Source: Acidobacteriota bacterium
Lineage (GTDB): Bacteria; Acidobacteriota; UBA6911; RPQK01; JAJDTT01
Reading direction: 5' to 3'
NCBI GenBank assembly: GCA_965217775.1
Contig: CBDCJH010000001.1
Location: forward strand, 29,816-93,815
Length of the DNA stretch: 64,000 bases
Shown here: positions 2,945-62,273 of the stretch, in pieces
How the letters are laid out: each line of letters starts with the position of its first letter
Numbering within the stretch: the first letter of the stretch is position 1
The notes under the pieces: generated by a model
The model's input: the letters and a program-made list of their open reading frames with translations, nothing else
The model's database searches: none
Told to the model about the DNA's origin: nothing
Position numbers and translations under genes: made by a program

Positions 2945-3640
2945 CTACTGCATCCCGTCGTCCGGCCGGGACCTCAGGAGATAGCGTTCCAGCACCCCGT
3001 CCCGGTCGAATTCGGAAGCCGCCCGGGTGACGGTTTCCCGGCAAAGGGGACTGAGGGGTTCCAACTCCGCCACGACACGGGTGCGACCGAACCTCTCGAT
3101 GGCCCGTCGATTCTCCAGGTTGAGGGGACCGTTCAGGACCACTCCCGCCAGACTCAGGCCTCTGGAACGGAGCGCTTCGAGGGTCAGGAGAGTGTGGTTG
3201 ATGGTCCCGAGCCGGCTCGACGAGACCACGAGGCAGGGCAGGTCCAGGGCGCTCAGGAGATCGGCCAAGAGATATCCGCGATCGGTCAGGGGCACCAGGA
3301 GCCCGCCGATCCCCTCCACGACCAGAAGACCGTTTCCCGAGGACTCCCGATGACGCCGGTAAGCGGAAACGATGCGTTCCGGTTCGATTTCGACTCCAGC
3401 CAGACGGGCTGCCAAGTGAGGCGATAGGGGCGGCGCAAACCGGTAACACTCCTCCAGAACTCGCAGCTCCGGCCCCACCAGGGAAGCCACTTCCCGGCTG
3501 TCGCTTCCCTCCTCTGCCCCCGTGGCAACCGGTTTCCAATAGGCTACTCCCATTCTCCCCATCCAACGGGCCAGGAGAACGGCGGAAACGACCGTCTTCC
3601 CGATCTCGGTTCCGGTTCCGGTGACCACGATTTCCATCAA
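2945..3640 (-). CDS. bioD: dethiobiotin synthase
   Basis: 231 aa. N-terminal P-loop VTGTGTEIGKT followed by YWKPVATG. Overlaps the bioF stop by 4 nt. Confidence 0.92.
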   Translation of the reverse strand: MMEIVVTGTGTEIGKTVVSAVLLARWMGRMGVAYWKPVATGAEEGSDSREVASLVGPELRVLEECYRFAPPLSPHLAARLAGVEIEPERIVSAYRRHRESSGNGLLVVEGIGGLLVPLTDRGYLLADLLSALDLPCLVVSSSRLGTINHTLLTLEALRSRGLSLAGVVLNGPLNLENRRAIERFGRTRVVAELEPLSPLCRETVTRAASEFDRDGVLERYLLRSRPDDGMQ

Positions 3641-4915: not shown

Positions 4916-4991
4916 GGCGGCGTACCCAAGTGGCTAAGGGAGAGGTCTGCAAAACCTCCATTCACCGGTTCGAATCCGGTCGCCGCCTCCA
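4916..4991 (+). tRNA. tRNA-Cys (anticodon GCA), CCA encoded
   Basis: Hand-folded cloverleaf. Acceptor GGCGGCG/CGCCGCC, anticodon stem GAGGT/ACCTC with loop CTGCAAA, T-arm ACCGG-TTCGAAT-CCGGT, discriminator T, then CCA. Confidence 0.93.
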
Positions 4992-20878: not shown

Positions 20879-21889
20879 TCACGGTATCTTGCGAAACCAG
20901 GTTCCGGAGAGTCCCAGCTCGCCCAACAGAATCACGACGGCCAGGGCCAGCGGATAGGGGAACAGCTCTCCGTATTGAGTGTATTGGTTCACCTTGATCT
21001 CGCTCTTTTCCAATTCGTCGATCTCACGGTAGATCTCCTCCAGGCTCTCACGATCCGTGGCCCGAAAATATCGCCCGCCCGTGGTGTCGGCGGCTTGTCG
21101 GAGAGCCTCTTCGTCGATGTCGACCCGGATCCGGGTCTGGCGCCGGCCGAAGACGGGGTCGTCCACAGGATAGGGGGCCGCGCCCCGGGTTCCGGCTCCG
21201 ATGGAATAGATGCGGATTTCGAAGGCCTGAGCCATCTGGGCCGCGGTGGCGGGGTCGATCTCTCCAGCGTTGTTGCGGCCGTCGGTGAGCAGGATCAACA
21301 CCTTGGACTCGGCTTCGCTCTCCTTGAGCCGGCCGACGGCGGTGGCGATGCCCATGCCCAGGGCGGTCCCGTCGTCCAGCAGGCCCACCTTCAGCTCGTC
21401 CAGAAAATCCAGAAGGATCCCGTAGTCCAGGGTCAAGGGACACTGGACGAACCCGTGACTGGCGAAAACCACCAGCCCGATACGGTCGTTGGTCCGGCGG
21501 CGGATGAAGTCGGCAGCGACCTGCTTCGCCGCCTCGATCCGGTCCGGCTCGATGTCCTGCGCCAGCATGGAACTGGACAGATCCAATGCCAGCACGATGT
21601 CGATCCCTTCCGCCGTCACCTCCTCACGGGTGGCGCCACTCTGGGGCCGCGCCGCCGCGAGAACCAGAAGCCCCAGGGCGATCAACCGAAGGGCGAAAAG
21701 AAAATGGCGGGAACGGGCCGCCATGGGCTTGTAGGCCTTCTTGAGAGATCCCACGTGCGGAAACCGCAGACTGGAGTTCCGGCGGCCCGCCCGCCTCAGG
21801 GTCCAGACCAGGATCAGGGGAAGGATCAGCAGCAGGCTGAGAAACCAGGGATCCGCGAAACGGTACGACATGGTCAAATCTCGGGGCAA
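20879..21889 (-). CDS. batA: BatA-like VWA-domain membrane protein
   Basis: 336 aa in the track (TTG start). The ATG at 21871 (MSYRFADPWFLSLLL) is the more likely start. Motifs LALDLSSSM and ILLTDGRNN. Confidence 0.8.
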   Translation of the reverse strand: MPRDLTMSYRFADPWFLSLLLILPLILVWTLRRAGRRNSSLRFPHVGSLKKAYKPMAARSRHFLFALRLIALGLLVLAAARPQSGATREEVTAEGIDIVLALDLSSSMLAQDIEPDRIEAAKQVAADFIRRRTNDRIGLVVFASHGFVQCPLTLDYGILLDFLDELKVGLLDDGTALGMGIATAVGRLKESEAESKVLILLTDGRNNAGEIDPATAAQMAQAFEIRIYSIGAGTRGAAPYPVDDPVFGRRQTRIRVDIDEEALRQAADTTGGRYFRATDRESLEEIYREIDELEKSEIKVNQYTQYGELFPYPLALAVVILLGELGLSGTWFRKIP

Positions 21890-21938
21890 AGCGAAATCAG
21901 GTCGTCGATCCCCAATTGTCCGAATCGAGGTTCTCTAT

Positions 21939-22096
21939 CAGTCCGTGGTGAAAGTCCCGCGAGCACCGAGACCGTTCCTGCGCCCGCCGGACAAGGCGCG
22001 ATTCGGGTGCATACCGGGAGTATGTGCCCGAATCGCAACGCAGTCCGCCGGGATGCAGGGACGGTCGAATGCCGTGGCGACTTTTGCCACGGGCTG
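21939..22096 (-). mobile_element. 158-bp MITE, copy 1 (reverse orientation relative to copy 2)
   Basis: About 93% identical by hand alignment to the reverse complement of 56169-56326. Termini are CAGYCCGTGG...CCACGGRCTG. Flanked by a direct 4-bp duplication CTAT (21935-21938 and 22097-22100). Confidence 0.8.
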
Positions 22097-22202
22097 CTAT
22101 GGCCCCAGGGGTCCACTCTACCGGTTTCGGACCCGCCGGCGGTCAGCTTTGAACTCCCACTCGGTGGGAGAATCCGTGCGGCCGTGATCCTGCACACGAT
22201 CC

Positions 22203-22523
22203 TCATCCGAGAACCCACAGGAGGGCCGCAACTATCCCCACGATGCCGGCGGCTTGTATTGCCAGGGCTCGATAGATCCGAGATTCCAGATCGCGGATGG
22301 TCGATTCCAGGGCCTCGCTCGTGGGACGCGACGCAATAGCCTCCCGGATCTGAGCCAGGTCGTCGTGCAGGGTCGTCGTGGCCTCATCGAATGCTTGGCG
22401 CACAGCTGCCGCATCGATGCCGGACCCTGTGTCTTTGCCCATTCGCTTGTCAATGACTTTCGTAACGGCCGTGACAACAGCGTCGATCAGAGCCCCAAGC
22501 AAAATCGGGGGAACAAGAACCAT
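22203..22523 (-). CDS. small hypothetical protein with hydrophobic N- and C-termini
   Basis: 106 aa. A strong AGGAGG lies 5 nt upstream of the ATG. MVLVPPILLGALIDAVVTAV ... ALAIQAAGIVGIVAALLWVLG. No family recognised. Confidence 0.6.
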   Translation of the reverse strand: MVLVPPILLGALIDAVVTAVTKVIDKRMGKDTGSGIDAAAVRQAFDEATTTLHDDLAQIREAIASRPTSEALESTIRDLESRIYRALAIQAAGIVGIVAALLWVLG

Positions 22524-32823: not shown

Positions 32824-33944
32824 GAACATTTCCCGCTCTCCCACGCCGAGCCGTTTGTCGGCGCTCCTTGGTAATTCTCGTTCCAACAATCCTGCACCCA
32901 CTCATACACGTTCCCGTGCATGTCGTGCAGGCCCCAGCCGTTGGGACCGAACGATCCCACCGGCGCCGTCTGTGCCTTGTCCCACTTACTCCCGCAGCCA
33001 ACACAGTTGGCCCGGTTGCGACCGATCCCGTTCCCCCAACTGTAGACCGTCTCCGTCCCCGCCCGAGACGCACCCCATCCGGAAGCTCCCCCCGGGGATC
33101 ACCACCATCTCCGGCCGAATCGGGTCCGCCTGGCTGCAGTCGTAAGTGCTGCTGCGGTCATAGGTGACCGACCTCTCGTTTTCTCCTCCCGGATCAAGGG
33201 TCCAAGTCCCGTCCCGTTTGTCCTCCACATACGACCCTTGTTCTACGATCTGCCCGTCATCGTTGCGCCTCACCCAGCGGCCGTGTTTCTTGCCTTCGAC
33301 GTAGGAGATTTCCCATGTGTCGCCGTCCGCGTCTCGGCCGGTCAGTTGGCCGTGTCTTTTGCCGTCTACGTACGGCCTTTTCTCTATGGATCCGTCTGGC
33401 CACCGAGCAGTCCAAAGGCCCTGCATATTGCCTTCCACGAAGGGTCCTTCTGTCTTGTTCCCGGACAGGTCACCGTCTGCTCCGGCAAGAGATATTCGTC
33501 CCACACGTGGCATCCCGGCTGGTTGGCCAGTTCCTTCCAACATTCGGAACCCTTCGCTTTGCCTGAGCAGGTCTGGACGGCATTGAACGTGTCCGCTTCG
33601 GCGGCGTTCAACAATTCCAGGGCTTCGATGTAGTGGTCCCCGTCGCGTCCAGCCATCTCCAAATAGCGCGTCACCATCTGGACCGCCCGGGCGGGACGGC
33701 CCGTCCGCTACGCCACTTGGGCACTTCGAAAATAGAATTCTTCCGGAAGCTTTAGACCCTGTTCCGTCTCTAACGTACTCATCTTGTCGAGCGCGGTTTG
33801 AGCACCAGCGAAGTCTTGCCGCTCGATCGCTTGCCGCGCGGAAAGTAGGTAGCGGTCCGCTTGGATCTCGGGTGGCAGCTGGGCGACCGTCGCGGGAGCG
33901 CCCAAGAATACGAAAACGACAACGCTCCGGATTCTTTTTTCCAT
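32727..33944 (-). pseudogene. DGR target: signal peptide + YwqK/MORN-like repeats + FGE-sulfatase (C-type lectin fold) domain; apparently disrupted
   Basis: The coding signal is split over track ORFs 33708-33944, 33384-33677, 32986-34017 (the latter's 3' half) and 32727-32960. There is an in-frame TAG at 33710-33708, a frame change near 33478, and a frame change plus missing domain core near 33055. Confidence 0.7.
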
Positions 33945-34080
33945 TGATTCTCTCCCGGTCTTCAGTGCATGCAGGTGAGGTGTGAATGCAGCCTATTCTA
34001 AAGGACCATCGGGCCATCTATCTTTTTGCTCCGCGGCAACCATTCTCCTGCTCCACTGATCGCTCTTCCCACCCTTCGCG

Positions 34081-35418
34081 TCACTTCACTAGGGCACCAA
34101 AAAGGTCCTCCAGATTTCGTGAGACGCCAAAGATGAATCGTAAGTCGTCAATCCCTTCGCCGTTGTTCAAATCAAATCCGAAGTGGATTCCTTTCAGATA
34201 GAGGCGAGACTCGATGTAGGTTCTCCATGGACGTTTCCGGGTAAAGTCCTTTTCCTCAATCATAGAAATAAGAGGGGGACCACGCCTCTTAGTTGGCATG
34301 GTGCGGCACTTTTGTATGTCTCTCGCACACTTCATTGCATTGGGTGTCAGCGGCGTTGCGATCTCATAGTTTTCAAACTTGCCGTAGGACACGTCCACGT
34401 AGAAGACCGGGGACCACGTGTTTCTCTTAGCCTTGTCCATGAGCGAGAATCGGCCTCCGAACGTGTAAGCAGAATAAATGTCATCTACATCCCAAATTCG
34501 AAGCGCCTTCTCACTACCCGTTATGCTTTGAAGGACGTACCTCCCAATAAAGCCACCCGACCACTGGTAGCGATCGTTTGATCCCAACGCTGCGACTGGG
34601 AAGTAGCGACCGACAACACCACCAAGGTGAATCGTCGCAGCTTTCTGTGACTGGATAAACGCACTCGAATCGAAGCCACCGCTGGCGTCCCCGGTGCTTG
34701 TCTTCACGCCAACCGAAGAAAGGCGAATGTTGACAATGGGATCAACGACGCATTCTCTTTCTGGGTCCACTATGGCTGGCATCAGGTCAAGCGCCATGTA
34801 CAGGTTCGCCTTAGTGAACGGTTCATTCGACCCCGCTTGAGCAGGGGCTTGAAGGTTCAACCTGTGCGTAGAGTTCGCCAGAACCACTCCAGCCGTGGCG
34901 TTCGCCCGCAGTAGACTTAGTACTGTTTTGTCGTCGGAATCACCTGCTGTGCCTTTGGCGTGTTCCGACCATGGGCCGCCGCCGCCTTCATTGTAAGCGC
35001 GAACCCGGTAGTGTTTCGTCGTACCGGCAAGGAGGTCGGTGTGGTGATACTTTGGTTTCTTGGGGTCAATGTCGTCGCATAGGATGATCCAGCCGGTGTT
35101 GCCGTCGTCGGAGACTTGGAGCGTGTAACCGGTGATCGTGGCATCTGCAGCCGGTTTGTTCCACGTCACCTCGATGCTACTGATTCCGGAGACCGCTTTC
35201 AGTCCACAGACTTTTTCTGGCTTTGGTGGGGAGGTCGTCTCCCCCGTGCCTGTCCCGAACCCGAGGACAGAGGCGTACATGAGGACGATGAGGAAGGCAA
35301 GAATATGACTGAGACGGGAGATAAATGAGAGCTTCTTACTCCTCCGCCACCCTCGCGGACCATTTGGCAGATTGGGCGGGATGTCGGGAGTGAGCCATCG
35401 GGCGGGTTCTTCTGACAC
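34081..35418 (-). CDS. membrane-anchored protein with a fibronectin type III domain and an unrecognised ~280-aa C-terminal domain
   Basis: 445 aa with TM ILAFLIVLMYASVLGF. FN3-like segment SIEVTWNKPAADATITGYTLQVSDDGNTGW...HYRVRAYNEGGGGPWS. Visibly lower GC than its flanks. Confidence 0.65.
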   Translation of the reverse strand: MSEEPARWLTPDIPPNLPNGPRGWRRSKKLSFISRLSHILAFLIVLMYASVLGFGTGTGETTSPPKPEKVCGLKAVSGISSIEVTWNKPAADATITGYTLQVSDDGNTGWIILCDDIDPKKPKYHHTDLLAGTTKHYRVRAYNEGGGGPWSEHAKGTAGDSDDKTVLSLLRANATAGVVLANSTHRLNLQAPAQAGSNEPFTKANLYMALDLMPAIVDPERECVVDPIVNIRLSSVGVKTSTGDASGGFDSSAFIQSQKAATIHLGGVVGRYFPVAALGSNDRYQWSGGFIGRYVLQSITGSEKALRIWDVDDIYSAYTFGGRFSLMDKAKRNTWSPVFYVDVSYGKFENYEIATPLTPNAMKCARDIQKCRTMPTKRRGPPLISMIEEKDFTRKRPWRTYIESRLYLKGIHFGFDLNNGEGIDDLRFIFGVSRNLEDLFGALVK

Positions 35419-36159
35419 TCTAACCTCCTTGAGGAAACCGTACCATTAGTTACCGTATCTATGACTTCGATCATGCCGAGTGAGTTGCTGAATTCAAGAT
35501 AAAGTGCCTTACAGGAAATAATCCCACATATCGTCATGCTCTAAGTTGGCCGCCACTTCTGTGCATATCTCAAGTGAACTTTCCCTGTAACTAAGGACGC
35601 AACTTTTTTTAAACGAGAATGCGGAATGTTACAACTTAGTACGTGCCTTTTTAGTCCCCATTTCTCATCACCGAAACGGAAGTCGGTGCGTTTAACGGCA
35701 TTTCAATGGTTTTCTTATTCATATGAATTCAAGTGCCGTCTTGCCGACTCGAATGTGGCGACAAAAGCCAAGATCGGGCGATGTCCAGAGGCATTTGACG
35801 TCCCACCTGCGTTCATGAGCCAGATTTCTCAAAGAGCCGACTCCAGCGCAGAGTCCGTCCGGCGCGGCGGACTCCCAAGGTGGCGTCTTCCCATTCGCTG
35901 TTTCCCGTCAACAGCGAACCTGGAGGGATTGCCCTCGCGCCAGAACCGATCACAAACACGAATTGCTAGCCCTGGTTTCACGAGCCGAAGCGGCTCCTGG
36001 CGGCTCACAAGTCTATCACCTGATGTTCAAATACCTATGACGTTTGGGAAACGAGAACCGGACAGTTTCCCCGAAAAAATTGAGGAGAGGCGCGATAGCC
36101 GTAGGTCCGAGGGAGTCGCTGTTGGCGGCGGCCTTCGCCGCTATGCTGGCGCCTCGATC

Positions 36160-36262
36160 TCCCTTCCTGCTTGCCGTGTAGCGGATCGTTCGTGGCGTCC
36201 ACGTTCAGGATCATGTACGCGGGCGGCGCTTGGTGCGCTTCCAGGAACACCTCCACCGGTCG
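36160..36262 (-). pseudogene. fragment resembling the N-terminal catalytic region of a DDE transposase (IS1380/IS4-superfamily-like)
   Basis: The minus-strand translation EVFLEAHQAPPAYMILNVDATNDPLHGKQEG resembles the LDxDxTxxxxHGxQEG block of such transposases. The similarity stops abruptly. Bounded by motif copies. Confidence 0.35.
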
Positions 36263-36501
36263 GAACCAGAGAGAAGGGGACAGTCACGTTTTCTGCATGC
36301 GATTCGCCAGGACCGAAAAGGGGACAGTCACATTCTCTGCTGTCGCTACTGGGGAGCTCCAGACTCGACTTCCACCGAGCCGCTCTTCGCCTGGAGACCC
36401 AAGAGGAGGATCGAAGCCCTATTGGCCGTTTCGACCTTGACCGAAGAGGAGAAGGAGACAGTCTATTTGTCGCGCGCCGTTGTCCTTGGTACGGTAGCGT
36501 A

Positions 36502-36945
36502 TCAGGTTAGTCCAGACGTAAACGATTGGGTGACCAGGCCCTTGGCCGCGTCTATCCCACCCTCCTTGATCAGGCGAGCAAGAATCTTTCCAAAAGTCTC
36601 GTCGGGTTGCTGGACGCCATCGGGAATGGAGTTGAGTAGCTTCAGCGCCTTCTCGGTCAACATGCAGCCGTTGACCTGTAGTCCTCCACGCTGGAGAGCC
36701 CGAACGTACTCATTCTCTACGAGCCAATCGATCGTCGAAAAGGCGATCCGCATCTGCTTCTGCTTCTCCTCGTCCACATCCTCTGAGTCGTCCTTGCGAG
36801 AGTAAAAGATGTCACCGTATCCTTTGGGGCGAGTGTCACCGCTGATTTCCCACGCCATAAGATCTTGTCTGACCGGAAAGTTCTCATAGAGGCGGCCCAA
36901 AATGATGGCGACGTATTCGTTGAACAGGTCGATGTTCTGCGTCAT
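36502..36945 (-). CDS. hypothetical protein
   Basis: 147-aa ORF with plausible composition (MTQNIDLFNEYVAIILGRLYENFP...). No family recognised. Lies between two motif copies. Confidence 0.5.
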   Translation of the reverse strand: MTQNIDLFNEYVAIILGRLYENFPVRQDLMAWEISGDTRPKGYGDIFYSRKDDSEDVDEEKQKQMRIAFSTIDWLVENEYVRALQRGGLQVNGCMLTEKALKLLNSIPDGVQQPDETFGKILARLIKEGGIDAAKGLVTQSFTSGLT

Positions 36946-44090: not shown

Positions 44091-44168
44091 TGGCGGGACC
44101 GACGAGATTCGAACTCGCGACCTCCGGCGTGACAGGCCGGCGTTCTAACCAAGCTGAACTACGGCCCC
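44091..44168 (-). tRNA. tRNA-Asp (anticodon GUC), CCA encoded
   Basis: The reverse complement folds as a cloverleaf. Acceptor GGGGCCG/CGGTCCC, anticodon stem CCGGC/GCCGG with loop CTGTCAC, T-arm GCGAG-TTCGAAT-CTCGT, discriminator G, then CCA. Confidence 0.93.

Positions 44169-53446: not shown

Positions 53447-53450
<4 letters not shown>
51129..53450 (-). CDS. copA: heavy-metal (Cu-type) translocating P1B-type ATPase with an N-terminal TRASH/YHS-like domain
   Basis: 773 aa. Motifs DPVCGMTV...[17 protein letters not shown] motif [19 protein letters not shown] and GDGVNDAP. Confidence 0.9.
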
Positions 53451-54531
<1,081 letters not shown>

Positions 54532-54535
<4 letters not shown>

Positions 54536-55920
54536 GACGGAGGTTGTCCCTCACCCTTGATTCGCCTGAGTCCGAACTTCCGCATCCGGTAGATCAGAGT
54601 GTTTCTGGTGATCCCCAGGTACCGCGCCGTACGAACCTGATTCCAGCGGTTCCGCTCCAGCGCCGCCAGCAGGATGTCACGCTCCAGCTCTTGCAGAGAA
54701 AAGCCTTTCTCCGGGAGCCGGAACATCCGGCCGTACGAATCCGCGGGAGGGCGGCGGATCTCGATGGGCAGGTCCTCGCGCTCGACGCTTCCGGTCCGGT
54801 TGAAGAGCACCAGCCTCTCGACGACGTTTTCCAGCTCCCGGACATTGCCGGGCCAACGGTACGACTGCAGCAGCGAAACCCCCTCTTCCCCGAACCGCAC
54901 CTCCTTTCCCAGTTTCCGGGACGACTCACTCTGGAAATGGTGGATCAGAAGCGGGACGTCTTCCCGGCGCTCCCGCAAGGGGGGGATCCTCAAGGGCGCG
55001 ACCGAGAGCCGATAGAACAGATCTTGCCGGAATCGGCCCTCGGCCATGTTCCGGACCAGGTCCTGATTCGTGGCCGCCAGGATCCGGACGTCCACGGGAG
55101 AGGGTACGGGGTCTCCGATCACATCCATCTCCTTGTGCTGCAATACCCGGAGCAGCTTCACCTGCATATCCAGCGGAAGCTCCGCCACCTCATCCAGGAA
55201 CAGAGTCCCGGTGTCCGCCACGGCGAACTTTCCATGCCTGTCGGCGACGGCTCCGGTGAATGCGCCCTTCCGGTGACCGAAGAGTTCGGACTCCATCAGG
55301 TCCCGCGGAATGGCGCCGCAGTTGACCACCACGAAGGGACGATCCCGGCGCGGACCGTTGAAATGGATGGCCCGCGCCAGGAGTTCCTTCCCGGTCCCCG
55401 TCTCTCCCTGAATCAGAACCGTCGTCCCCACCGCCGCCAGTTGGCGCGCCATGTCCAGGACCTCCCGGAACTCCTTGGACGATCCCACGATCCCCTCGAA
55501 CTCGAACCTGCGCTGCACCTCCCGGGAGAGTCTCCGGTTCTCCCGAATCAACTGCGTCATCTGCAGGGCTTTCCGGATGGAGTGGTGGATCTCCTCCCGC
55601 TCGAAGGGCTTGGTCAGAAAATCGGAGGCCCCGCCCTTGACGGCGTCGACGGCCCCCTCGATGGAGCCGTGGGCGGTCAGGACGATCACGGGCAGGTCCG
55701 GGTCCAGCCGGCGGATCCGTTCCAGCAACTGGAGGCCGTCCATCCCCGGCATGCGAAGGTCGGTGACCACCAGGTCCACGTCGGACTCGCGAACCCGGTC
55801 CAAGGCGCGGTCACCGGAAGAGACGCAGCAAGTGTCGTACCCGAACTGCTCGACCTGATAACCCAGGACCCGCAGGAAATTCCGGTCGTCGTCGACCAAC
55901 AGGATCCGTTCGGATTTCAT
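54532..55920 (-). CDS. sigma54-dependent response regulator (NtrC family)
   Basis: 462 aa with a receiver domain (LLVDDD...DLVVTDLRMPGMDG). AAA+ domain with Walker A GETGTGKE and the GAFTGA loop (KGAFTGAV). C-terminal HTH. Confidence 0.92.
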
Positions 55921-55944
55921 CTTCTATCCATTGTAACCAACATG

Positions 55945-55999
55945 TGTATCATATGAGACATCTGTTTTATTTCCCACATTCTATGATTCATATGAACCA
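55945..55999 (+). promoter_or_regulatory. two near-palindromic 16-mers (candidate enhancer/UAS sites for the NtrC-type regulator)
   Basis: TGTATCATATGAGACA (55945-55960) and TGATTCATATGAACCA (55984-55999). They share the form TG-N2-TCATATGA-N2-CA and start 39 bp apart. They lie about 110-150 bp upstream of the sigma54-like promoter. Confidence 0.45.
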
Positions 56000-56100
56000 T
56001 AGAACAGGCTCGTCGATCCCCGGACCGTCTCCGGCCGGTAAGCATCAAATATCCAATTTGGAAGGACTTAGCACCCGCATCCGGGGGCAGGAGCTCCAGT

Positions 56101-56116
56101 TGGATCGGAAATTGCG
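56101..56116 (+). promoter_or_regulatory. sigma54-type -24/-12 promoter for the efflux operon
   Basis: TGGATCGGAAATTGCG has GG and TTGC at the canonical TGGCAC-N5-TTGC spacing. It lies about 25-30 nt upstream of the GTG/ATG at 56141/56147. A sigma54-dependent regulator is encoded divergently. Confidence 0.55.
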
Positions 56117-56140
56117 TGCGAAAACAGGCGAGCCGGACAA

Positions 56141-57646
56141 GTGACGATGAAGAGATCGACACCCTTAACAGCCCGTGGTGAAAGTCGCCACGGCATTCGA
56201 CCGTCCCTGCATCCCGGCGAACTGCGTTGCGATCGGCTCACATACTCCCGGTATGCTCCCTCATCGCGCCTTGTCCGGCGGGCGCAGGAACGGTCTCGGT
56301 GCTCGCGGGACTCTCACCACGGACTGTTAATCCTGACGGCCGTATTGCTGGGAGTCGGGCTCCTCCTGCCGGGGGTCCCCGGAGTCTACGGAGCGCAGCC
56401 GGATGCGGAGCAAGCCTTCCACATCCCGGACCCGCTGCTGGGTGAGTACATTCGCACCGCCCTCGACTCCAACCCCTCCATCCTGACCGAGCTGGCCCGT
56501 TACCGTGCGGCTCTCCAGAAGGTGCCCCAGCAGACCGCTCTTCCCGATCCCATGGTGAGCTTCGGCCGCTACCTTCGCAGCGTAGAAACCCGGGAAGGTC
56601 CTCAACTGAGCACGCTCACACTCAGCCAGCGGTTCCCCTGGTTCGGCAAGCTGGACCTGAAGGGCAAGATCGCCTTCAAACGGGCGGCGGCCCGATACCG
56701 TCTCTACCGCGCCCGGGAAAGGGAAGTCGCCGCCGACGTGAAGCGAAACTTCTACGACGTGGCCTTTCTGGACCGGGCCCTGGAAGTCGTACAGGAGGAG
56801 AAATCTCTGCTGGCTCACTACGAGAATCTGGCTCAGGCTCGTTACGCTTCGGGCAAGGGACACCAGCAGGAGGTGATCCGGATCCAGGCCGAGATCAGCC
56901 GGACCATGAGCCGGCTGGAACTGCTGGGACAACAACGCCAATCGGCGGCGGCACGACTGAACAGCCTGCTGGACCAGCCTCCGGAAAAGCCCGTGCCTCG
57001 ACTCCTGCTTCCCGCTGCGGCGAAGGTCAGTATCAACTTGGATGAATTGTACGAGCTGGGGAAGCTTCACCGGCAGGAACTCAAGGGGACCATGGCGCGG
57101 ATCGAAGCTTCGGAGCAGGGCGTGGAGCTGGCCAAGAAGAGTTTCTGGCCGGATTTCACACTGACTGCGGGGACCGTCAACGTGGGCGGTCTTCCGCCGC
57201 AGGACCTGTTGCCGGCGACGCGTCCCGGCGGCGGAAAGAATGCCTACAACCTCTCGGTGGGCATCAACATTCCCCTCCAAAGGCACAAATACCGCGCGGA
57301 GGTGATGGAGGCCGCGGAAAACCTGATCGCCGAACGCAGCACGTATCGAGATCTGCGAAACCGGATTCAACTCTCCATCCGGGACCTGGCGGTTCGCATC
57401 CAGACCCTGTGGAGACAGATGGACCTGTTTGAACGGGTCCTGATTCCCCAGACCCGGGAGGCGCTCCGTTCCGCCGAGTCCGGATACCGGAACGGGCAGT
57501 TGGGGGCCCTGGAGCTCTTGGACAGCGAACGGTCCCTGTTGGAAACGCGCGTGCTCCAGGCTCGCCACCGGGCCGACTATTTGCAGGCCCTGGCGGAAAT
57601 GGAGCGGGCCGTCGGAGCACGTTACCCCGGATCGGGAGAAGACTGA
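56141..57646 (+). CDS. TolC-family outer-membrane efflux protein (CusC/CzcC-like) carrying an in-frame MITE insertion near the 5' end
   Basis: 501-aa track ORF. From about residue 65 it is a typical OMF (paired coiled repeats). Residues ~10-63 are encoded by MITE copy 2. The functional start is uncertain. Confidence 0.8.
   Translation: MTMKRSTPLTARGESRHGIRPSLHPGELRCDRLTYSRYAPSSRLVRRAQERSRCSRDSHHGLLILTAVLLGVGLLLPGVPGVYGAQPDAEQAFHIPDPLLGEYIRTALDSNPSILTELARYRAALQKVPQQTALPDPMVSFGRYLRSVETREGPQLSTLTLSQRFPWFGKLDLKGKIAFKRAAARYRLYRAREREVAADVKRNFYDVAFLDRALEVVQEEKSLLAHYENLAQARYASGKGHQQEVIRIQAEISRTMSRLELLGQQRQSAAARLNSLLDQPPEKPVPRLLLPAAAKVSINLDELYELGKLHRQELKGTMARIEASEQGVELAKKSFWPDFTLTAGTVNVGGLPPQDLLPATRPGGGKNAYNLSVGINIPLQRHKYRAEVMEAAENLIAERSTYRDLRNRIQLSIRDLAVRIQTLWRQMDLFERVLIPQTREALRSAESGYRNGQLGALELLDSERSLLETRVLQARHRADYLQALAEMERAVGARYPGSGED
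56169..56326 (+). mobile_element. 158-bp MITE, copy 2
   Basis: Terminal inverted repeats CAGCCCGTGGTGAAAGTC ... GACTCTCACCACGGACTG. Flanked by direct TTAA repeats (56165-56168 and 56327-56330). About 93% identical to copy 1. Confidence 0.8.
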
Positions 57647-59148
57647 TGAAAAGATGGGTTCTACCGGTCTTGCTGATTTTTCTGGCGGCGGCCGCCCTGA
57701 TCCTGGTGGATCCTTTCGATTGGCGCCTGATCCATCGGTTCCGGAAGGGAATCCCCTCCTGGTTCGGCATTCTGTCTCCCCAACGAGATTCCCAGGAGGG
57801 ACAGCTCTGGACCTGCGGCATGCATCCCCAGGTCATCCGCCAAGGGCCGGGAAGCTGTCCGCTCTGCGGGATGCGCCTGAGTCCGTTGAAAGGATCGACC
57901 GCCGGCCGGGAAGGCTCCGGGACAGATCGGGAAGGTGCCGGGACCGACCACGTCATGTCCCGTTCCCGACTCTCGCACGGCTCCACGGGCGACACCGGTG
58001 TTTCCGGCGAAACGGAGACACGCACCGCAGACAACCAACAGCCGGACGTTCCGGAAACGGAAATCGAGACCCGTCATCAGGACGTCGTTCGAATCGACCC
58101 GTCCTTCGTCCAGAACTTCGGCGTGCAGTGGGTCGCAGTCCGGCGGGTCGATCTCTCCTTCACCATCCGAACCGTGGGAAACCTGGTCCACGACGAAGGG
58201 AAGATGTCCTGGATCAACACCAAGTACGACGGTTGGATCGAGAAGGCTCACGTCAACTACGTGGGTGAGCCGGTCGAGAGAGGCCAGAAGCTGCTGGAGA
58301 TCTACAGCCCCGAACTGGTGACCACCCAGCAGGAGTATCTGCAGGCCATGGACTACGCCGAGCGGCTCGGCGGAAACCAGTACCCCGAGGTCGCCGAGCG
58401 GGCCCGATCCCTGGTGGAGTCCAGCCGGCGCCGGCTGGATCACTGGGACGTCGACTCGGACCAGATCCGCCGTCTGGAAGAGTCCCGAGAGCCCCGGCAC
58501 ACCGTCACCTTGGTATCACCGGTCAGCGGAGTGGTGGTGGAGAAAATGGACAAGGCGTTGGAGGGGATGCGAGTCCGTCCCGGAATGAACCTCTACAAGA
58601 TCGCCGATCCTTCCAGCCTCTGGGTGGAGGCGGAGGTCTTCGAGCATCAGATTCCCTGGCTGCAGATCGGACAGGCCGCCTCCATCGAGATTCCTGCCCA
58701 ACCGGGACAAAAATTTCAAGGCGCCGTCCGGTTCCTGTCCCCCGCCATCAGCGGCCGGACCCGGACTCTCAAGGTGTCGGTGGAGTTGATGGATCCCGAT
58801 CCGAGCCTTCGCGCCGACATGTACGCCAACGTCACCTTCGACGTGTCATCGGTCCGCGGAGCACTGGCGGTTCCCGAGGACTCGGTGATCCACAGCGGCC
58901 GCCGGAACCTGGTGGTCCTGGATCGGGGAAATGGAGCCTTCCAGGTCCGGGTGGTGGTGTTGGGCAGAAACGGCAATGGATTCTGGGAAGTGAGGAAGGG
59001 TCTGGCCGTTGGCGATCGGGTCGTGATCTCTTCCCAATTCCTCATCGATTCGGAGAGCCGTCTGAAGGAGGCCATTCGGAAAATCGTCTCTCCGAACTCC
59101 ACGGACGCCACGGGGAACACAGGATCCTCCATGCATCATCAGCACTGA
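57646..59148 (+). CDS. RND efflux periplasmic adaptor (CusB/CzcB-like) with an N-terminal metal-binding CxxC-type motif
   Basis: 500 aa. Motif WTCGMHPQVIRQGPGSCPLCGMRL followed by membrane-fusion-protein domains. Its start overlaps the upstream stop. Confidence 0.88.
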   Translation: MKRWVLPVLLIFLAAAALILVDPFDWRLIHRFRKGIPSWFGILSPQRDSQEGQLWTCGMHPQVIRQGPGSCPLCGMRLSPLKGSTAGREGSGTDREGAGTDHVMSRSRLSHGSTGDTGVSGETETRTADNQQPDVPETEIETRHQDVVRIDPSFVQNFGVQWVAVRRVDLSFTIRTVGNLVHDEGKMSWINTKYDGWIEKAHVNYVGEPVERGQKLLEIYSPELVTTQQEYLQAMDYAERLGGNQYPEVAERARSLVESSRRRLDHWDVDSDQIRRLEESREPRHTVTLVSPVSGVVVEKMDKALEGMRVRPGMNLYKIADPSSLWVEAEVFEHQIPWLQIGQAASIEIPAQPGQKFQGAVRFLSPAISGRTRTLKVSVELMDPDPSLRADMYANVTFDVSSVRGALAVPEDSVIHSGRRNLVVLDRGNGAFQVRVVVLGRNGNGFWEVRKGLAVGDRVVISSQFLIDSESRLKEAIRKIVSPNSTDATGNTGSSMHHQH

Positions 59149-59174: not shown

Positions 59175-62100
59175 ATGCTTGGGAAAATCATCGACTGGTC
59201 CCTGGAAAACCGCCTCCTGGTCATCCTGGCCACCGGTTTCATCATCATCGCCGGACTGTATTCCTTCCGGCAGACCCCCCTGGACGCCATTCCGGACCTC
59301 TCTGACGTCCAGGTCATCATTTACGCCGAATACCCGGGCCAGGCCCCGCAGGTGGTGGAAGACCAGTTGACCTACCCCATCACCACCCAGATGCTCTCCG
59401 TGCCCTATTCGAAAGCCGTGCGGGGGTACTCTTTCTTCGGTTATTCCTTCGTCTACGTCATCTTCGAAGACGGGACCGACATGTACTGGGCCCGGAGCCG
59501 GGTGCTGGAGTCCCTGAACTACGTCAGCACCCGTCTGCCCGAAGGAGTGAGTCCCACCCTGGGACCGGACGCCAGCGGCGTCGGGTGGGCCTTCATGTAC
59601 GTCCTCAAATCGGAACGGAGAAACCTGGCCGAGCTTCGCAGCCTCCAGGACTGGTTCCTCAAGTACGAGCTCACCTCGGTCGACGGCGTGTCGGAAGTCG
59701 CGAGCGTCGGCGGCTTCGTCAAGCAGTACCAGATCACCGTGGATCCCAACAGGCTCCGAGCCTACGACATTCCCATCTCCCAGATTCGCCAGGCCGTCCA
59801 GCGGAGCAACAGCGAAGTGGGGGGACGGGTCCTGGAGATGTCGGAAACCGAGTTCATGATCCGCGGCCGGGGATATATCCGGAACGTGGCGGACCTCCGG
59901 GAGATTGCGTTGGCGGTGTCTCCGGCCGGAACGCCGATTCTCCTGAGAGACGTGGCCACGGTCCAGATGGGACCCGAAATGCGGCGGGGGATCGCTGAAT
60001 TCAACGGCGAGGGAGAGGTGGTGGGCGGAATCGTCGTGGTGCGGTCCGGGGCCAATACCCACCAGGTCATTCAAGGAGTCAAGGAGAAGTTGGAGGAGCT
60101 GCGCCAGGGTCTGCCCGGGGACGTCGAGATCCTGACCGTCTACGACCGGTCGGCTCTGATCGAACGGGCGGTGAAGACACTGGGGGAGAAACTCCTGGAA
60201 GAGGGGCTGGCGGTCGCCCTGGTGTGCATCCTGTTCCTGCTCCATTTGCGCTCCTCGCTGGTGGCCATCATCACCTTGCCGGTGGCGGTCCTGATCTCCT
60301 TCATCGTCATGGAGCAGCAGGGGATCGACGCCAACATCATGTCTCTGGGGGGCATCGCCATCGCCATCGGGGCCATGGTCGACGGCGCCGTCATCATGAT
60401 CGAGAACGCCCACAAGCACCTGGAGGCGGATCGCGGCCGCAAGGACCACTGGCAGATCATCGCCGAGGCCTCCAAGGAGGTCGGCCCCACCCTCTTCTTC
60501 GCCATGCTGGTCATCACCGTCTCCTTCATTCCCGTCTTCACTCTGGAGGCCCAGGAAGGGAGGCTCTTCAAGCCCTTGGCCTTCACCAAGACCTGGTCCA
60601 TGGCGGCGGCTTCGATTCTGGCGATCACTCTGGTGCCGGTCCTCATGGGTTACTGGATTCGGGGCCGGATCCGGTCCGAGAAGAGGAATCCCCTCAGCCG
60701 TATCCTGATCCGGCTCTACGACCCGGTGCTCCGTCTCCTGCTGAGGTGGAAGTGGACGGTCCTGCTCCTCACCGCCGGGACCTTGGGGTTGACCTGGTTT
60801 CCCTACTCCCGCCTGGGATCCGAGTTCATGCCGCCCCTCTATGAAGGCGACCTGCTCTACATGCCCACCACCCTGCCCGGAATCTCCACCACCAAGGCCC
60901 GAGAGATCCTGCAGCAGACAGACAGGATCATCGCCAGCTTTCCCGAGGTCGACCGCGTCTTCGGAAAGATCGGGCGAGCCGACACGGCCACCGACCCCGC
61001 CCCCCTGAACATGATCGAAACCACCATCATGCTCAAACCCGAGTCGGAGTGGCGCCCCGGCATGACCCCGGACACCCTCATCGCTGAGTTGAACCAGGCC
61101 ATTCAGTTCCCTGGACTCACCAACACCTGGACCATGCCCATCAAGACCCGGATCGCCATGCTCTCCACCGGAATCAAGACCCCGGTCGGGATCAAGTTGT
61201 CGGGACCGGACCTTACCGTGCTCCAGAACCTGGGGCAGGAGATCGAGGCGGTGGTCCGCCGCCTGCCCGGCACCCTCTCCGTCTACTCGGAGCGGGTCAT
61301 GGAGGGCAACTACCTGGACTTCGACATCCGGCGGGACGCCATTGCCCGCTACGGGCTCACCGTGGGCGACGTCCAGGATGTGATCCAGTCGGCCATCGGC
61401 GGAATGAACATCACCACCACCGTCGAGGGTCTGGAGCGCTATCCGGTGAATCTACGCTACAGCCGGGAATTGCGGGACAACCTTCCTGCCCTGCGGGAAA
61501 TCCTGGTTCCCACACCACGGGGGTCGCAGATCCCCCTGGGACAGTTGGCCTCCATCCGAATCCGGAAGGGGCCGGCTTCCATCAAGACCGAGAATTCCCG
61601 CCCCAACGCCTGGATCTACGTCGACCTGGCAGACATCGACGTGGGGAACTACGTGACCATGGCGCGGCAGGCGGTCGCGGGCCAAGTCGACGTTCCCGAC
61701 GGATACAACGTCGTCTGGAGCGGTCAGTACGAGCACATGGTGCGGACCCGCCAACACCTGATGGCCGTGATCCCCATGACCCTGTTGATCGTCTTCGTCA
61801 TCATCTACCTGAACACGCGCTCCGTTTTCGAGACGGCCATCGTGTTTCTGGCGGTCCCCTTCTCCCTGGTGGGAGCGTTCTGGCTGCTCTATCTGCTCGA
61901 CTACAACATGAGCGTTGCGGTCTGGGTCGGGATCATCGCCCTGATGGGACTGGATGCGGAAACCGGCGTGGTGATGCTACTCTACCTGAACGTGGCCTAC
62001 GGGAAGGCAGTCCGGGAGGGTCGCATGCAGCGGCTTTCGGATCTGACCGGTTGCATCCGCGAGGGCGCGGTCCACCGTGTGCGCCCCAAGGTGATGACGG

Positions 62101-62273
62101 CCTGCATCATCCTGGCGGGTCTCATTCCCATCATGTGGAGCCGTGGAGCCGGCGCGGACGTCATGAAGAGAATCGCCGCACCCATGGTCGGCGGAGTGAC
62201 GACTTCCGTCCTCCTGGAACTCTGTGTCTACCCCGTCATCTACTACATCTGGAAGGGTTGGAGGCTGAAATGA
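59175..62273 (+). CDS. CusA/CzcA-family heavy-metal efflux RND transporter
   Basis: 1032 aa with 12-TM RND architecture. The N-terminus (IIDWSLENRLLVILATGFIIIAGLYSF) is typical of the HME-RND family. Confidence 0.93.
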   Translation: MLGKIIDWSLENRLLVILATGFIIIAGLYSFRQTPLDAIPDLSDVQVIIYAEYPGQAPQVVEDQLTYPITTQMLSVPYSKAVRGYSFFGYSFVYVIFEDGTDMYWARSRVLESLNYVSTRLPEGVSPTLGPDASGVGWAFMYVLKSERRNLAELRSLQDWFLKYELTSVDGVSEVASVGGFVKQYQITVDPNRLRAYDIPISQIRQAVQRSNSEVGGRVLEMSETEFMIRGRGYIRNVADLREIALAVSPAGTPILLRDVATVQMGPEMRRGIAEFNGEGEVVGGIVVVRSGANTHQVIQGVKEKLEELRQGLPGDVEILTVYDRSALIERAVKTLGEKLLEEGLAVALVCILFLLHLRSSLVAIITLPVAVLISFIVMEQQGIDANIMSLGGIAIAIGAMVDGAVIMIENAHKHLEADRGRKDHWQIIAEASKEVGPTLFFAMLVITVSFIPVFTLEAQEGRLFKPLAFTKTWSMAAASILAITLVPVLMGYWIRGRIRSEKRNPLSRILIRLYDPVLRLLLRWKWTVLLLTAGTLGLTWFPYSRLGSEFMPPLYEGDLLYMPTTLPGISTTKAREILQQTDRIIASFPEVDRVFGKIGRADTATDPAPLNMIETTIMLKPESEWRPGMTPDTLIAELNQAIQFPGLTNTWTMPIKTRIAMLSTGIKTPVGIKLSGPDLTVLQNLGQEIEAVVRRLPGTLSVYSERVMEGNYLDFDIRRDAIARYGLTVGDVQDVIQSAIGGMNITTTVEGLERYPVNLRYSRELRDNLPALREILVPTPRGSQIPLGQLASIRIRKGPASIKTENSRPNAWIYVDLADIDVGNYVTMARQAVAGQVDVPDGYNVVWSGQYEHMVRTRQHLMAVIPMTLLIVFVIIYLNTRSVFETAIVFLAVPFSLVGAFWLLYLLDYNMSVAVWVGIIALMGLDAETGVVMLLYLNVAYGKAVREGRMQRLSDLTGCIREGAVHRVRPKVMTACIILAGLIPIMWSRGAGADVMKRIAAPMVGGVTTSVLLELCVYPVIYYIWKGWRLK

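Follow-up and report, generated by a model that had tools for sequence, protein, structure and literature searches.

An in-frame MITE between the n- and h-regions of the putative signal peptide of an Acidobacteriota efflux protein, and the recurrence of its family at signal-peptide junctions

Does the first gene of a putatively sigma54-controlled efflux operon, of the copper/silver or Co/Zn/Cd type, still work in a lineage in which a transposable element has entered its signal-peptide coding region? This annotation question is raised by a 64,000-nucleotide stretch (hereafter called the window) of the contig CBDCJH010000001.1 from an Acidobacteriota bacterium. The gene in question, at 56141-57646 of the window on the + strand, encodes a TolC-family outer-membrane efflux protein (Pfam OEP, E = 1.8e-37). 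A 158-bp MITE (a miniature transposable element with inverted repeats) lies at 56169-56326 (+) in this gene, between the n- and h-regions of the putative signal peptide, and leaves the reading frame open. Copies of the same MITE family occupy the corresponding junction in other exported proteins, and signal-peptide junctions are a recurrent resting place of this family. Here we describe the element, the site that it entered and its relatives, and weigh what the insertion may mean for the efflux gene.

The element and its empty site

The element has the structure of a fold-back MITE. The left terminal inverted repeat, CAGCCCGTGGTGAAAGTC, occupies 56169-56186 (+), and its 18-21 bp are the same as those that end autonomous elements of 1.44-1.54 kb. 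The right terminal inverted repeat, identified by the repeat pattern and the complementarity of the arms, occupies 56309-56326 and reads CAGTCCGTGGTGAGAGTC on the - strand. The two repeats agree at 16 of 18 positions, and the arms including the flanking TTAA sequences extend over 22 nt with 91% complementarity. These TTAA sequences are the target-site duplication: the TTA of the left copy (56165-56168) is Leu codon 7 counted from the ATG at 56147, and the right copy, read directly from the sequence, is at 56327-56330. The repeat pattern occurs four times in the window, as compared to the 0.29 occurrences expected, and two of these matches delimit a second MITE copy at 21939-22096 (-). This copy is flanked by CTAT duplications (21935-21938 and 22097-22100), has the opposite orientation, and matches the efflux-gene copy at 149 of 158 positions. 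When the element and its flanks are folded as RNA, they form a single long hairpin of -86.3 kcal/mol (z = -6.4), which also forms when the fold is computed for the entire 5′ part of the mRNA. The initial annotation, made from the letters of the window alone, had already described a hairpin-forming MITE with a TTAA duplication, and both descriptions hold at these coordinates.

What kind of element is it? First, its 158 bp are well below the ~500 bp limit of MITEs and leave no room for a transposase of 452-461 aa. Second, the duplication has a fixed length, being TTAA/TTAA here and CTAT/CTAT at the second copy. Third, the copies are dispersed, with two in the window and at least 162 in the genome and metagenome scans described below. 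Finally, the element is polymorphic in presence and absence, since the orthologous locus L002 and the orthologous proteins P0001-P0010 are without it. The sequence at 56169-56326 is a non-autonomous 158-bp MITE. The second copy differs from the consensus of their small subfamily at 2 positions and the efflux-gene copy at 11.

How does the insertion alter the protein? The open reading frame (ORF) comprises 501 aa from the GTG at 56141 or 499 aa from the ATG at 56147, and is intact, with neither a frameshift nor a stop. It reads MTMKRSTPL, then TARGESRHGIRPSLHPGELRCDRLTYSRYAPSSRLVRRAQERSRCSRDSHHGL (TARGES...HHGL), and then LILTAVLLGVGLLLPGVPGVYGAQPD. The insertion adds 158 + 4 = 162 nt, which are 54 codons without a stop, in agreement with the initial annotation, which had proposed an in-frame insertion of this length between the n- and h-regions. 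The inserted peptide contains 12 Arg residues against 5 acidic residues, and thereby has a net charge of +7. The h- and c-regions of the signal peptide (LILTAVLLGVGLLLPGVPGVYG; 56327-56392, +) are unchanged when aligned with the N-termini of the orthologues, and the putative cleavage site precedes AQPD at 56393. The N-terminus reconstructed by inspection is MKRSTPL + ILTAVLLGVGLLLPGV + PGVYG|AQ, with Val at position -3 and Gly at position -1. The mean hydrophobicity over the 10 residues directly after the element is 2.88.

About 30 orthologues (84-93% identical) reveal the gene without the element. The ten closest ones, P0001-P0010, are 84-93% identical, lack the 54 residues, and share the N-terminus MKRSTPP-ILTAVLL; their lengths as called are 443-486 aa, with unrelated upstream extensions on the longer ones. 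The 90% cluster of P0001 has 32 members, and among the 15 listed, 12 are 446 aa long and without the 54-aa block, two are 433 aa, and one, P0129, is 499 aa. P0129 is identical to the window ORF from the ATG at 56147, and is the sole carrier of the insert among these 15. At the DNA level, the gene order is conserved in L002, where the orthologous DNA at the empty site reads ACGCCC|CCAATCCTGACG. The refuting condition named in the initial annotation, orthologues with the 54-aa segment or a failed empty-site reconstruction, was checked and the outcome favours the insertion: the segment is in no orthologue examined, and the empty-site reconstruction, re-inspected, agrees with the orthologues. The pre-insertion allele with TTAA, AGATCGACRCCCTTAATCCTGACGGC, found no match when searched in metagenome contigs, and the orthologous empty site is CCAA.

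The same allele is present in an independent assembly. The 23x contig L122, which encodes P0129, matches the window exactly over 56101-56400. This exact match extends across the element, which rules out an assembly artefact as the origin of the allele. A different version is found in the 8x long-read contig L001, in which positions 3182-3281 correspond to the window 56165-56334 and contain a garbled element of ~100 bp that lacks the left end and both TTAA copies. We considered this short version as a partial excision and rejected it, because the 8x coverage of L001 is low and 6.5 kb of this contig contain 14 gap openings; further frameshifts occur downstream. It is most simply explained as an assembly error through the hairpin, although a genuine partial deletion is conceivable. 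We also rejected a 284-bp element (L003) as an occupant of the same site: it has the same 6-bp flanks, CCTTAA/TTAATC, by coincidence, and its wider flanks are unrelated.

Beyond the element, the window and L122 form a mosaic. They are 100% identical over ~2.9 kb (55496-58409), including the insert-bearing gene. Outside this block, there are 9 differences in the regulator gene, and strong divergence begins at 58410. The synonymous divergence is 0.05 in the adaptor gene and up to 0.2 where the pump gene begins, and indels are absent. As judged from these sequences, the pattern suggests that diverged strains have exchanged parts of the operon by homologous recombination.

Target site, reading frame and the element family

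Why did the element enter the gene at this position? The duplication consensus of the family is YTAR (where Y is a pyrimidine and R is a purine), and the reconstructed gene of 1338 nt contains a single YTAR site, which is the TTAA that was hit. No YTAR site exists in the coding sequences of the neighbouring membrane-fusion protein (MFP), RND pump, response regulator and histidine kinase genes. The position of the element is thus explained by the sole YTAR site in the coding DNA of this five-gene cluster. In the whole window, 53 YTAR sites are present against 568 expected from the base composition, which is an approximately tenfold depletion, and 36 of the 53 lie in the ~18% of the window sequence outside gene-like ORFs.

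A low-GC island at 33700-36600 has 19 of the 53 sites and a GC content of 52.9% in 34001-36000, as compared to ~62% elsewhere. In the 445-aa ORF that it contains (34081-35418, -), a fibronectin type III domain is almost the only feature that can be recognised, and the island is possibly horizontally acquired DNA.

Why is the insertion in frame? The consequence of an insertion depends on the phase of the YTAR site. In phase 0, YTA is a Leu codon, and the ends of the element read L-(A/T)ARGES...FHHGL-L without a stop. When Y is at codon position 3, the following TAR is a stop codon, and such a site is impossible inside a gene. When YT is at codon positions 2-3, the repeat reads ...CCG TGG TGA, which leads to termination. 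The subfamily consensus is stop-free in phase 0 in both orientations, and 76% of the sampled 158-bp copies are open in this phase. In at least two subfamilies, phase 0 is stop-free in both orientations and encodes basic peptides. Since the insertion adds 162 nt and phase 0 is stop-free, an open in-frame insertion is the expected result of hitting a Leu codon.

Two other copies show what the family can do in reading frames. The copy at L037 6085-6242, with a GTAA duplication, lies in frame inside a 651-aa DDE_Tnp_1 transposase ORF and leaves it open, and is thus a MITE nested within an unrelated insertion sequence (IS). The copy at L089 3671-3828 precedes a penicillin-amidase gene and is read in a different phase, which is stop-free because its repeat has TGG CGA in place of TGG TGA. 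There is no start codon between the L089 element and the hydrophobic core, and two in-frame ATG codons lie within the element, which may supply the start codon and the n-region.

How widespread is the family? We scanned one genome per species for the repeat pattern, which yielded at least 119 loci, and metagenomes for complete elements, which yielded at least 120. The loci listed from the genome scan are nearly all from Acidobacteriota metagenome-assembled genomes (MAGs), including Vicinamibacterales, Bryobacterales, Thermoanaerobaculia and others, with a few from Planctomycetota and Myxococcota. At least 162 copies are of MITE size, and the modal length of exactly 158 bp is found in 95 and 159 bp in 31. 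Identical 4-bp flanks are present in 103 of the 162 listed copies, and are mainly CTAG (64), followed by TTAA (10), TTAG (8) and CTAA (8). The closest listed copies to the window element are identical at 144-150 of 158 positions, and reside in other Acidobacteriota MAGs. The consensus MITE peptide retrieved two short ORFs only from an index of 5.8 billion proteins, and 149 hits, mostly short spurious ORFs, from the 50%-identity representatives.

The family also lies close to genes in other arrangements. Many copies (L034, L035, L167, L086, L115, L141, L226 and others) end 0-12 codons upstream of the next start codon, and often occupy the expected position of the ribosome-binding site. The second copy in the window has a 106-aa ORF (22203-22523, -) on one side and a BatA/VWA gene (20879-21889, -) on the other, lies downstream of a BatD-like gene, and is probably co-transcribed within the Bat operon.

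Which transposase moves the element? The scans gave at least 14 elements, 1442-1535 bp long, that carry these 18-bp ends and in most cases have matching YTAR duplications; no such full-length autonomous partner was found in the window itself. The full-length elements at L021 and L072 encode transposases of 452 and 461 aa, respectively, with the DUF772 and DDE_Tnp_1 domains above the Pfam cut-offs. Their NCBIfam scores are 176-194 bits for IS1182 (cut-off 270) and 89-115 bits for IS5_4 (cut-off 140), both below the cut-offs, and their nearest plasmid-borne relatives are ~50% identical, one of which is annotated as an IS5-family transposase. By sequence, we place the partner at the level of the IS5/IS1182 superfamily only. 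The MITE and the full-length elements have the terminal 18-21 bp in common, while their interiors are unrelated. Since only the ends are common, the MITE is a cross-mobilised element, rather than a simple deletion derivative. A TA duplication of the IS630/Tc1-like type was considered, since the repeat starts with CAG, and was rejected on the basis of the 103 copies of 162 with identical 4-bp flanks and the DUF772/DDE_Tnp_1 partner.

Signal-peptide junctions and the fate of the efflux gene

Does the family enter other signal peptides? We judged the coding frames abutting the element ends by a criterion based on the GC content at third codon positions (GC3), and required the element to be followed within 15 residues by a hydrophobic core, with no start codon between them. 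Ten sampled junction copies satisfy these rules: eight, including the window copy, are open in frame, and two (L176 and L230) are blocked. L171 has the same pattern, and is excluded by the start-codon rule, as an ATG is the second codon after its element; with this copy, nine of 11 are open. Besides the window copy, eight sampled copies are thus in frame before a hydrophobic core: L036, L092, L109, L125, L136, L171, L193 and L231.

The host proteins are diverse. According to Pfam, the window copy resides in a TolC-type outer-membrane factor, L036 in a PSCyt1/PSCyt2/PSD1 protein, L109 in a DPP-IV / S9 peptidase, L125 in an ankyrin-repeat protein, L136 in a PQQ dehydrogenase, L171 in a CarboxypepD_reg-domain protein, and L231 in an S9 peptidase with PD40 repeats, while the Pfam search gave no domain for L092 and L193. 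The L036 case is confirmed by comparison. Its ORF of 925 aa reads MRTRL[54 aa]LALVVALTILGLGAGAAAPAEAQ (continuing with LALVVALT...), and its orthologue P0284, of 871 aa and 96% identical, lacks the 54 aa and has the N-terminus MRSRAALVVGLTIVGLGAGAAAPAKAQ (MRSRAALVVGLT...). A peptide search added a further case of the lipoprotein type, P0164, which reads MPHRQSPRGRCLAAL[element]LAATLLLATC. Other in-frame copies lie just after the signal peptide (L014, a porin O/P; L134, a VWA protein) or inside proteins (the transposase of L037, P0142, P0186 and P0138). All nine junction peptides have a positive net charge, from +2 to +11. We rejected a bias in charge or orientation as a signal, because the opposite orientation usually encodes a positive peptide as well and the comparison is uninformative.

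How would such a gene arise and remain in use? We propose the following sequence of events for the efflux gene. First, a DDE transposase of the IS5/IS1182 superfamily would recognise the 18-bp ends CAGYCCGTGGYRARAGTC and mobilise the MITE in trans, duplicating the 4-bp YTAR target. The insertion would have occurred into the TTAA that comprises Leu codon 7 (TTA) and the next base of the outer-membrane-factor gene. Second, translation would start at the ATG at 56147 or the GTG at 56141, behind the putative sigma54 promoter, and the ribosome would read through the hairpin-forming insert. The n-region of the putative Sec-type signal peptide would thereby grow from ~7 to ~61 residues and become Arg-rich, with no change to the hydrophobic core, to the VYG|AQ cleavage region or to any part of the mature protein. 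Finally, the precursor would still be targeted and cleaved, possibly less efficiently, and the extra peptide would be discarded with the signal peptide. The location of the element would reflect the scarcity of targets in a GC-rich genome, together with selection that removes insertions elsewhere in the coding DNA.

We favour, from three findings taken together (the sole target site, the stop-free phase and the recurring insertions at the n/h-junction), a gene that tolerates the insertion and still exports its product, over a gene that is inactivated. On the sequences at hand, the element is probably a passenger that the gene tolerates, rather than a part exapted for regulation, and translation, export and cleavage would continue.

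Several points weigh against this interpretation. The insertion is probably young, as it is confined to one lineage and the surrounding 2.9 kb are 100% identical in two good assemblies. Because there have been zero substitutions since the insertion, the intact ORF and the ordinary dN/dS (the ratio of the nonsynonymous and synonymous substitution rates) say little. The -86 kcal/mol hairpin starts ~19 nt after the ATG, and could lower translation or attract RNase III. A simple Kyte-Doolittle window served to call the hydrophobic cores, the coding frames were likewise judged by a simple heuristic, and the family census is a sample from both scans that is biased toward copies with intact ends. Selection for an open frame at the junctions was considered and rejected, since nine open copies of 11 do not differ from the 76% baseline (P = 0.49). 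The recurrence reflects insert-bearing alleles that persist long enough for sampling, all with the insert in the portion of the precursor that would be cut off, and is not proof of selection.

Could the insertion have inactivated the outer-membrane factor? A basic n-region of 61 residues would block Sec targeting, or the hairpin would block translation or trigger cleavage, and the gene would be a pseudogene too recent for decay to have set in. A polar effect on the adaptor could follow, since the adaptor start overlaps the stop of the outer-membrane-factor gene by 1 nt. The position of the hairpin just after the ATG and its persistence in the wider mRNA fold fit this explanation, as do the restriction of the allele to one lineage (only P0129 among the 15 listed of 32) and the lack of substitutions between the two strains, which leaves no time for visible decay. 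However, eight other exported proteins of different genomes have an in-frame insertion at the junction, and one of them is confirmed by its orthologue. In addition, the allele is present in at least two assemblies with differing flanks, the insertion has altered neither the mature protein nor the h- and c-regions, and the insert branch shows neither a frameshift or stop nor a surplus of amino-acid changes. The dN/dS of the efflux gene against L002 is 0.35, as compared to 0.39 for the neighbouring MFP gene, and the relative-rate comparison gave 10 lineage-specific amino-acid changes on each branch. Relaxed constraint on the efflux gene was accordingly rejected as a signal: neither test shows anything, and both insert-bearing strains are identical. 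We regard inactivation as unlikely, although it is the likeliest of the alternatives.

Could translation instead begin downstream of the element? The initial annotation had suggested re-initiation at a TTG near 56346. An in-frame TTG is indeed present downstream of the element, although it occupies 56345-56347 (+), and between the element and the mature protein no other canonical start codon is in frame. From this codon, a functional protein would be made with the minimal signal peptide MLGVGLLLPGVPGVYG, which has no charged n-region, and the ATG and the element would constitute a leader, either translated or untranslated. The TTG lies 15 nt past the foot of the hairpin and is unpaired in the centroid fold. 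In the sequence upstream of it, however, no Shine-Dalgarno-like motif is seen, and the resulting signal would have no basic n-region and a core of only ~10 residues. Moreover, L036, L109 and other junction cases have no start codon between the element and the core, so the general pattern cannot depend on re-initiation. We consider this start site very unlikely to be the one in use.

Still less do we expect a co-opted element that acts as a regulatory leader, in which the hairpin would tune the mRNA stability, the RNase III processing or the translation rate of the efflux operon. Its structure is very stable, and at many other loci a copy of the family precedes a start codon by only a few codons. 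Correia and ERIC (enterobacterial repetitive intergenic consensus) elements are substrates of RNase III or RNase E and change how neighbouring genes are expressed, which favours such a role. Against it, a scan of the element and its surroundings found no promoter-like or terminator-like motif, the position of the element is fully explained by the sole target site, the conservation is limited to one lineage, and the copy is indistinguishable from the intergenic ones.

The proposal that the 54 residues are native to the protein or arose in assembly deserves practically no credence, given their absence from the orthologues, the inverted repeats, duplication and more than 160 relatives of the element, and the identical sequence over the element in L122 at 23x. 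The garbled version in L001, an 8x assembly, is most simply an assembly error.

The operon, known systems and meaning

The efflux gene heads an operon of the outer-membrane factor, MFP and RND type, as the initial annotation had proposed and the domain matches to all three genes now support. Overlapping the efflux gene by 1 nt, the second gene (57646-59148, +) encodes a membrane-fusion (adaptor) protein with a heavy-metal-binding domain (Pfam HlyD_D23 and HMBD; NCBIfam RND_mfp above the cut-off), and the third (59175-62273, +) a CusA/CzcA-family heavy-metal RND pump (TIGR00914, 1189.6 bits against a cut-off of 701). Divergently oriented are the genes for a sigma54-dependent response regulator (54532-55920, -; Pfam Response_reg, Sigma54_activat and HTH_8) and a sensor histidine kinase (53447-54535, -; Pfam HisKA and HATPase_c), and a YHS/HMBD P-type ATPase lies beyond them. 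With the pump, adaptor and outer-membrane factor encoded in one operon, the locus is predicted to be an RND system of the CusCBA/CzcCBA type.

How might the operon be controlled? A putative sigma54-type -24/-12 promoter, TGGATCGGAAATTGC, is located at 56101-56115 (+), just upstream of the gene, where the initial annotation had also seen it. The motif occurs twice in the window, as compared to 0.58 occurrences expected, and is kept in L002 as TGGTCCGGGAATTGC. The GG and GC dinucleotides at -24 and -12 with the canonical spacing, and the adjoining gene for a Sigma54_activat regulator, are consistent with a sigma54 promoter. In the divergent intergenic region, ~100-160 bp upstream of this promoter, a repeat search detected a cluster of palindromes and direct repeats at 55939-56004 (TTCTATGATTCAT/ATGAACCATAGAA; TCATATGAGACAT and TCATATGAACCAT). 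Judging from their position only, the palindromes are likely to be binding sites of the adjoining sigma54 activator. Elsewhere in the window, the only Rfam and ARAGORN matches are tRNA-Cys(GCA) at 4916-4991 (+) and tRNA-Asp(GTC) at 44091-44168 (-).

How does the element compare with known systems? It resembles the MITEs derived from, or cross-mobilised by, IS5/IS1182 elements in its small size, the inverted repeats shared with an IS, the 4-bp YTAR duplication (mostly CTAG), the many copies, the lack of transposase coding capacity, and the presence/absence polymorphism. In contrast to those MITEs, only the terminal 18-21 bp are common to the element and its partner here, and the transposases score below the NCBIfam cut-offs for IS1182 and IS5.

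Fusions of MITEs with host ORFs in frame are documented for Rickettsia palindromic elements (RPEs), intragenic ERIC, Coxiella QMITEs and Anabaena MITEs (PMC10969869; PMC5896051), and these accounts do not mention signal peptides. Like the RPEs and intragenic MITEs, the present family consists of palindromes of ~150 bp that lie in frame in several unrelated genes, adding a peptide and leaving the gene open. The RPEs reside inside mature proteins, reportedly at surface positions, whereas most of the coding-region copies here are in the cleaved signal peptide. The host phylum, the sequence and the target site also differ, and we treat this GC-rich family as an analogue of the RPEs, rather than a member.

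Sec signal peptides of more than 50 residues with N-terminal extensions, such as the extended signal peptide region (ESPR) of autotransporters, can still be exported and cleaved. Both the ESPR and the present insertion lengthen the N-terminus in front of an otherwise normal h/c region. The ESPR, however, is conserved and vertically inherited, with an n1-h1-n2-h2-c architecture and its own motif, while the 54-aa insert is hydrophilic, has no h1, is transposon-encoded, and is missing in the orthologues; the likeness goes no further than a functional analogy. Correia (CREE) and ERIC elements likewise form co-transcribed MITE hairpins in operons, which are potential nuclease substrates that alter expression. 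Unlike these intergenic elements, the present one is inside a coding sequence, and no promoter or terminator motifs were found with it. In the literature searched, we found no description of this Acidobacteriota MITE family or of a preference for the signal-peptide n/h-junction, which is not proof of novelty. The in-frame insertion of a MITE is a known kind of event, and the family-level pattern is the part worth following up.

What does the pattern mean for these bacteria? Annotation pipelines call the efflux gene product as a 499-aa TolC protein, without a flag on the insert, and signal-peptide predictors and start-codon callers may mishandle such genes in Acidobacteriota MAGs. The insertions are natural experiments, in which at least nine unrelated exported proteins have each received a basic segment of ~54 residues between their n- and h-regions. 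They bear on the tolerance of the Sec pathway for the length and charge of the n-region, and on how target-site scarcity and purifying selection shape the survival of transposons in GC-rich genomes. It is conceivable, although we think it rather improbable, that the MITE family is adapted to live inside signal peptides, with the cleaved n-region as a safe harbour where its target is nearly absent from coding DNA. If this is true, then the family could tune the export or translation kinetics of its host genes, and would provide a natural library of n-region extensions.

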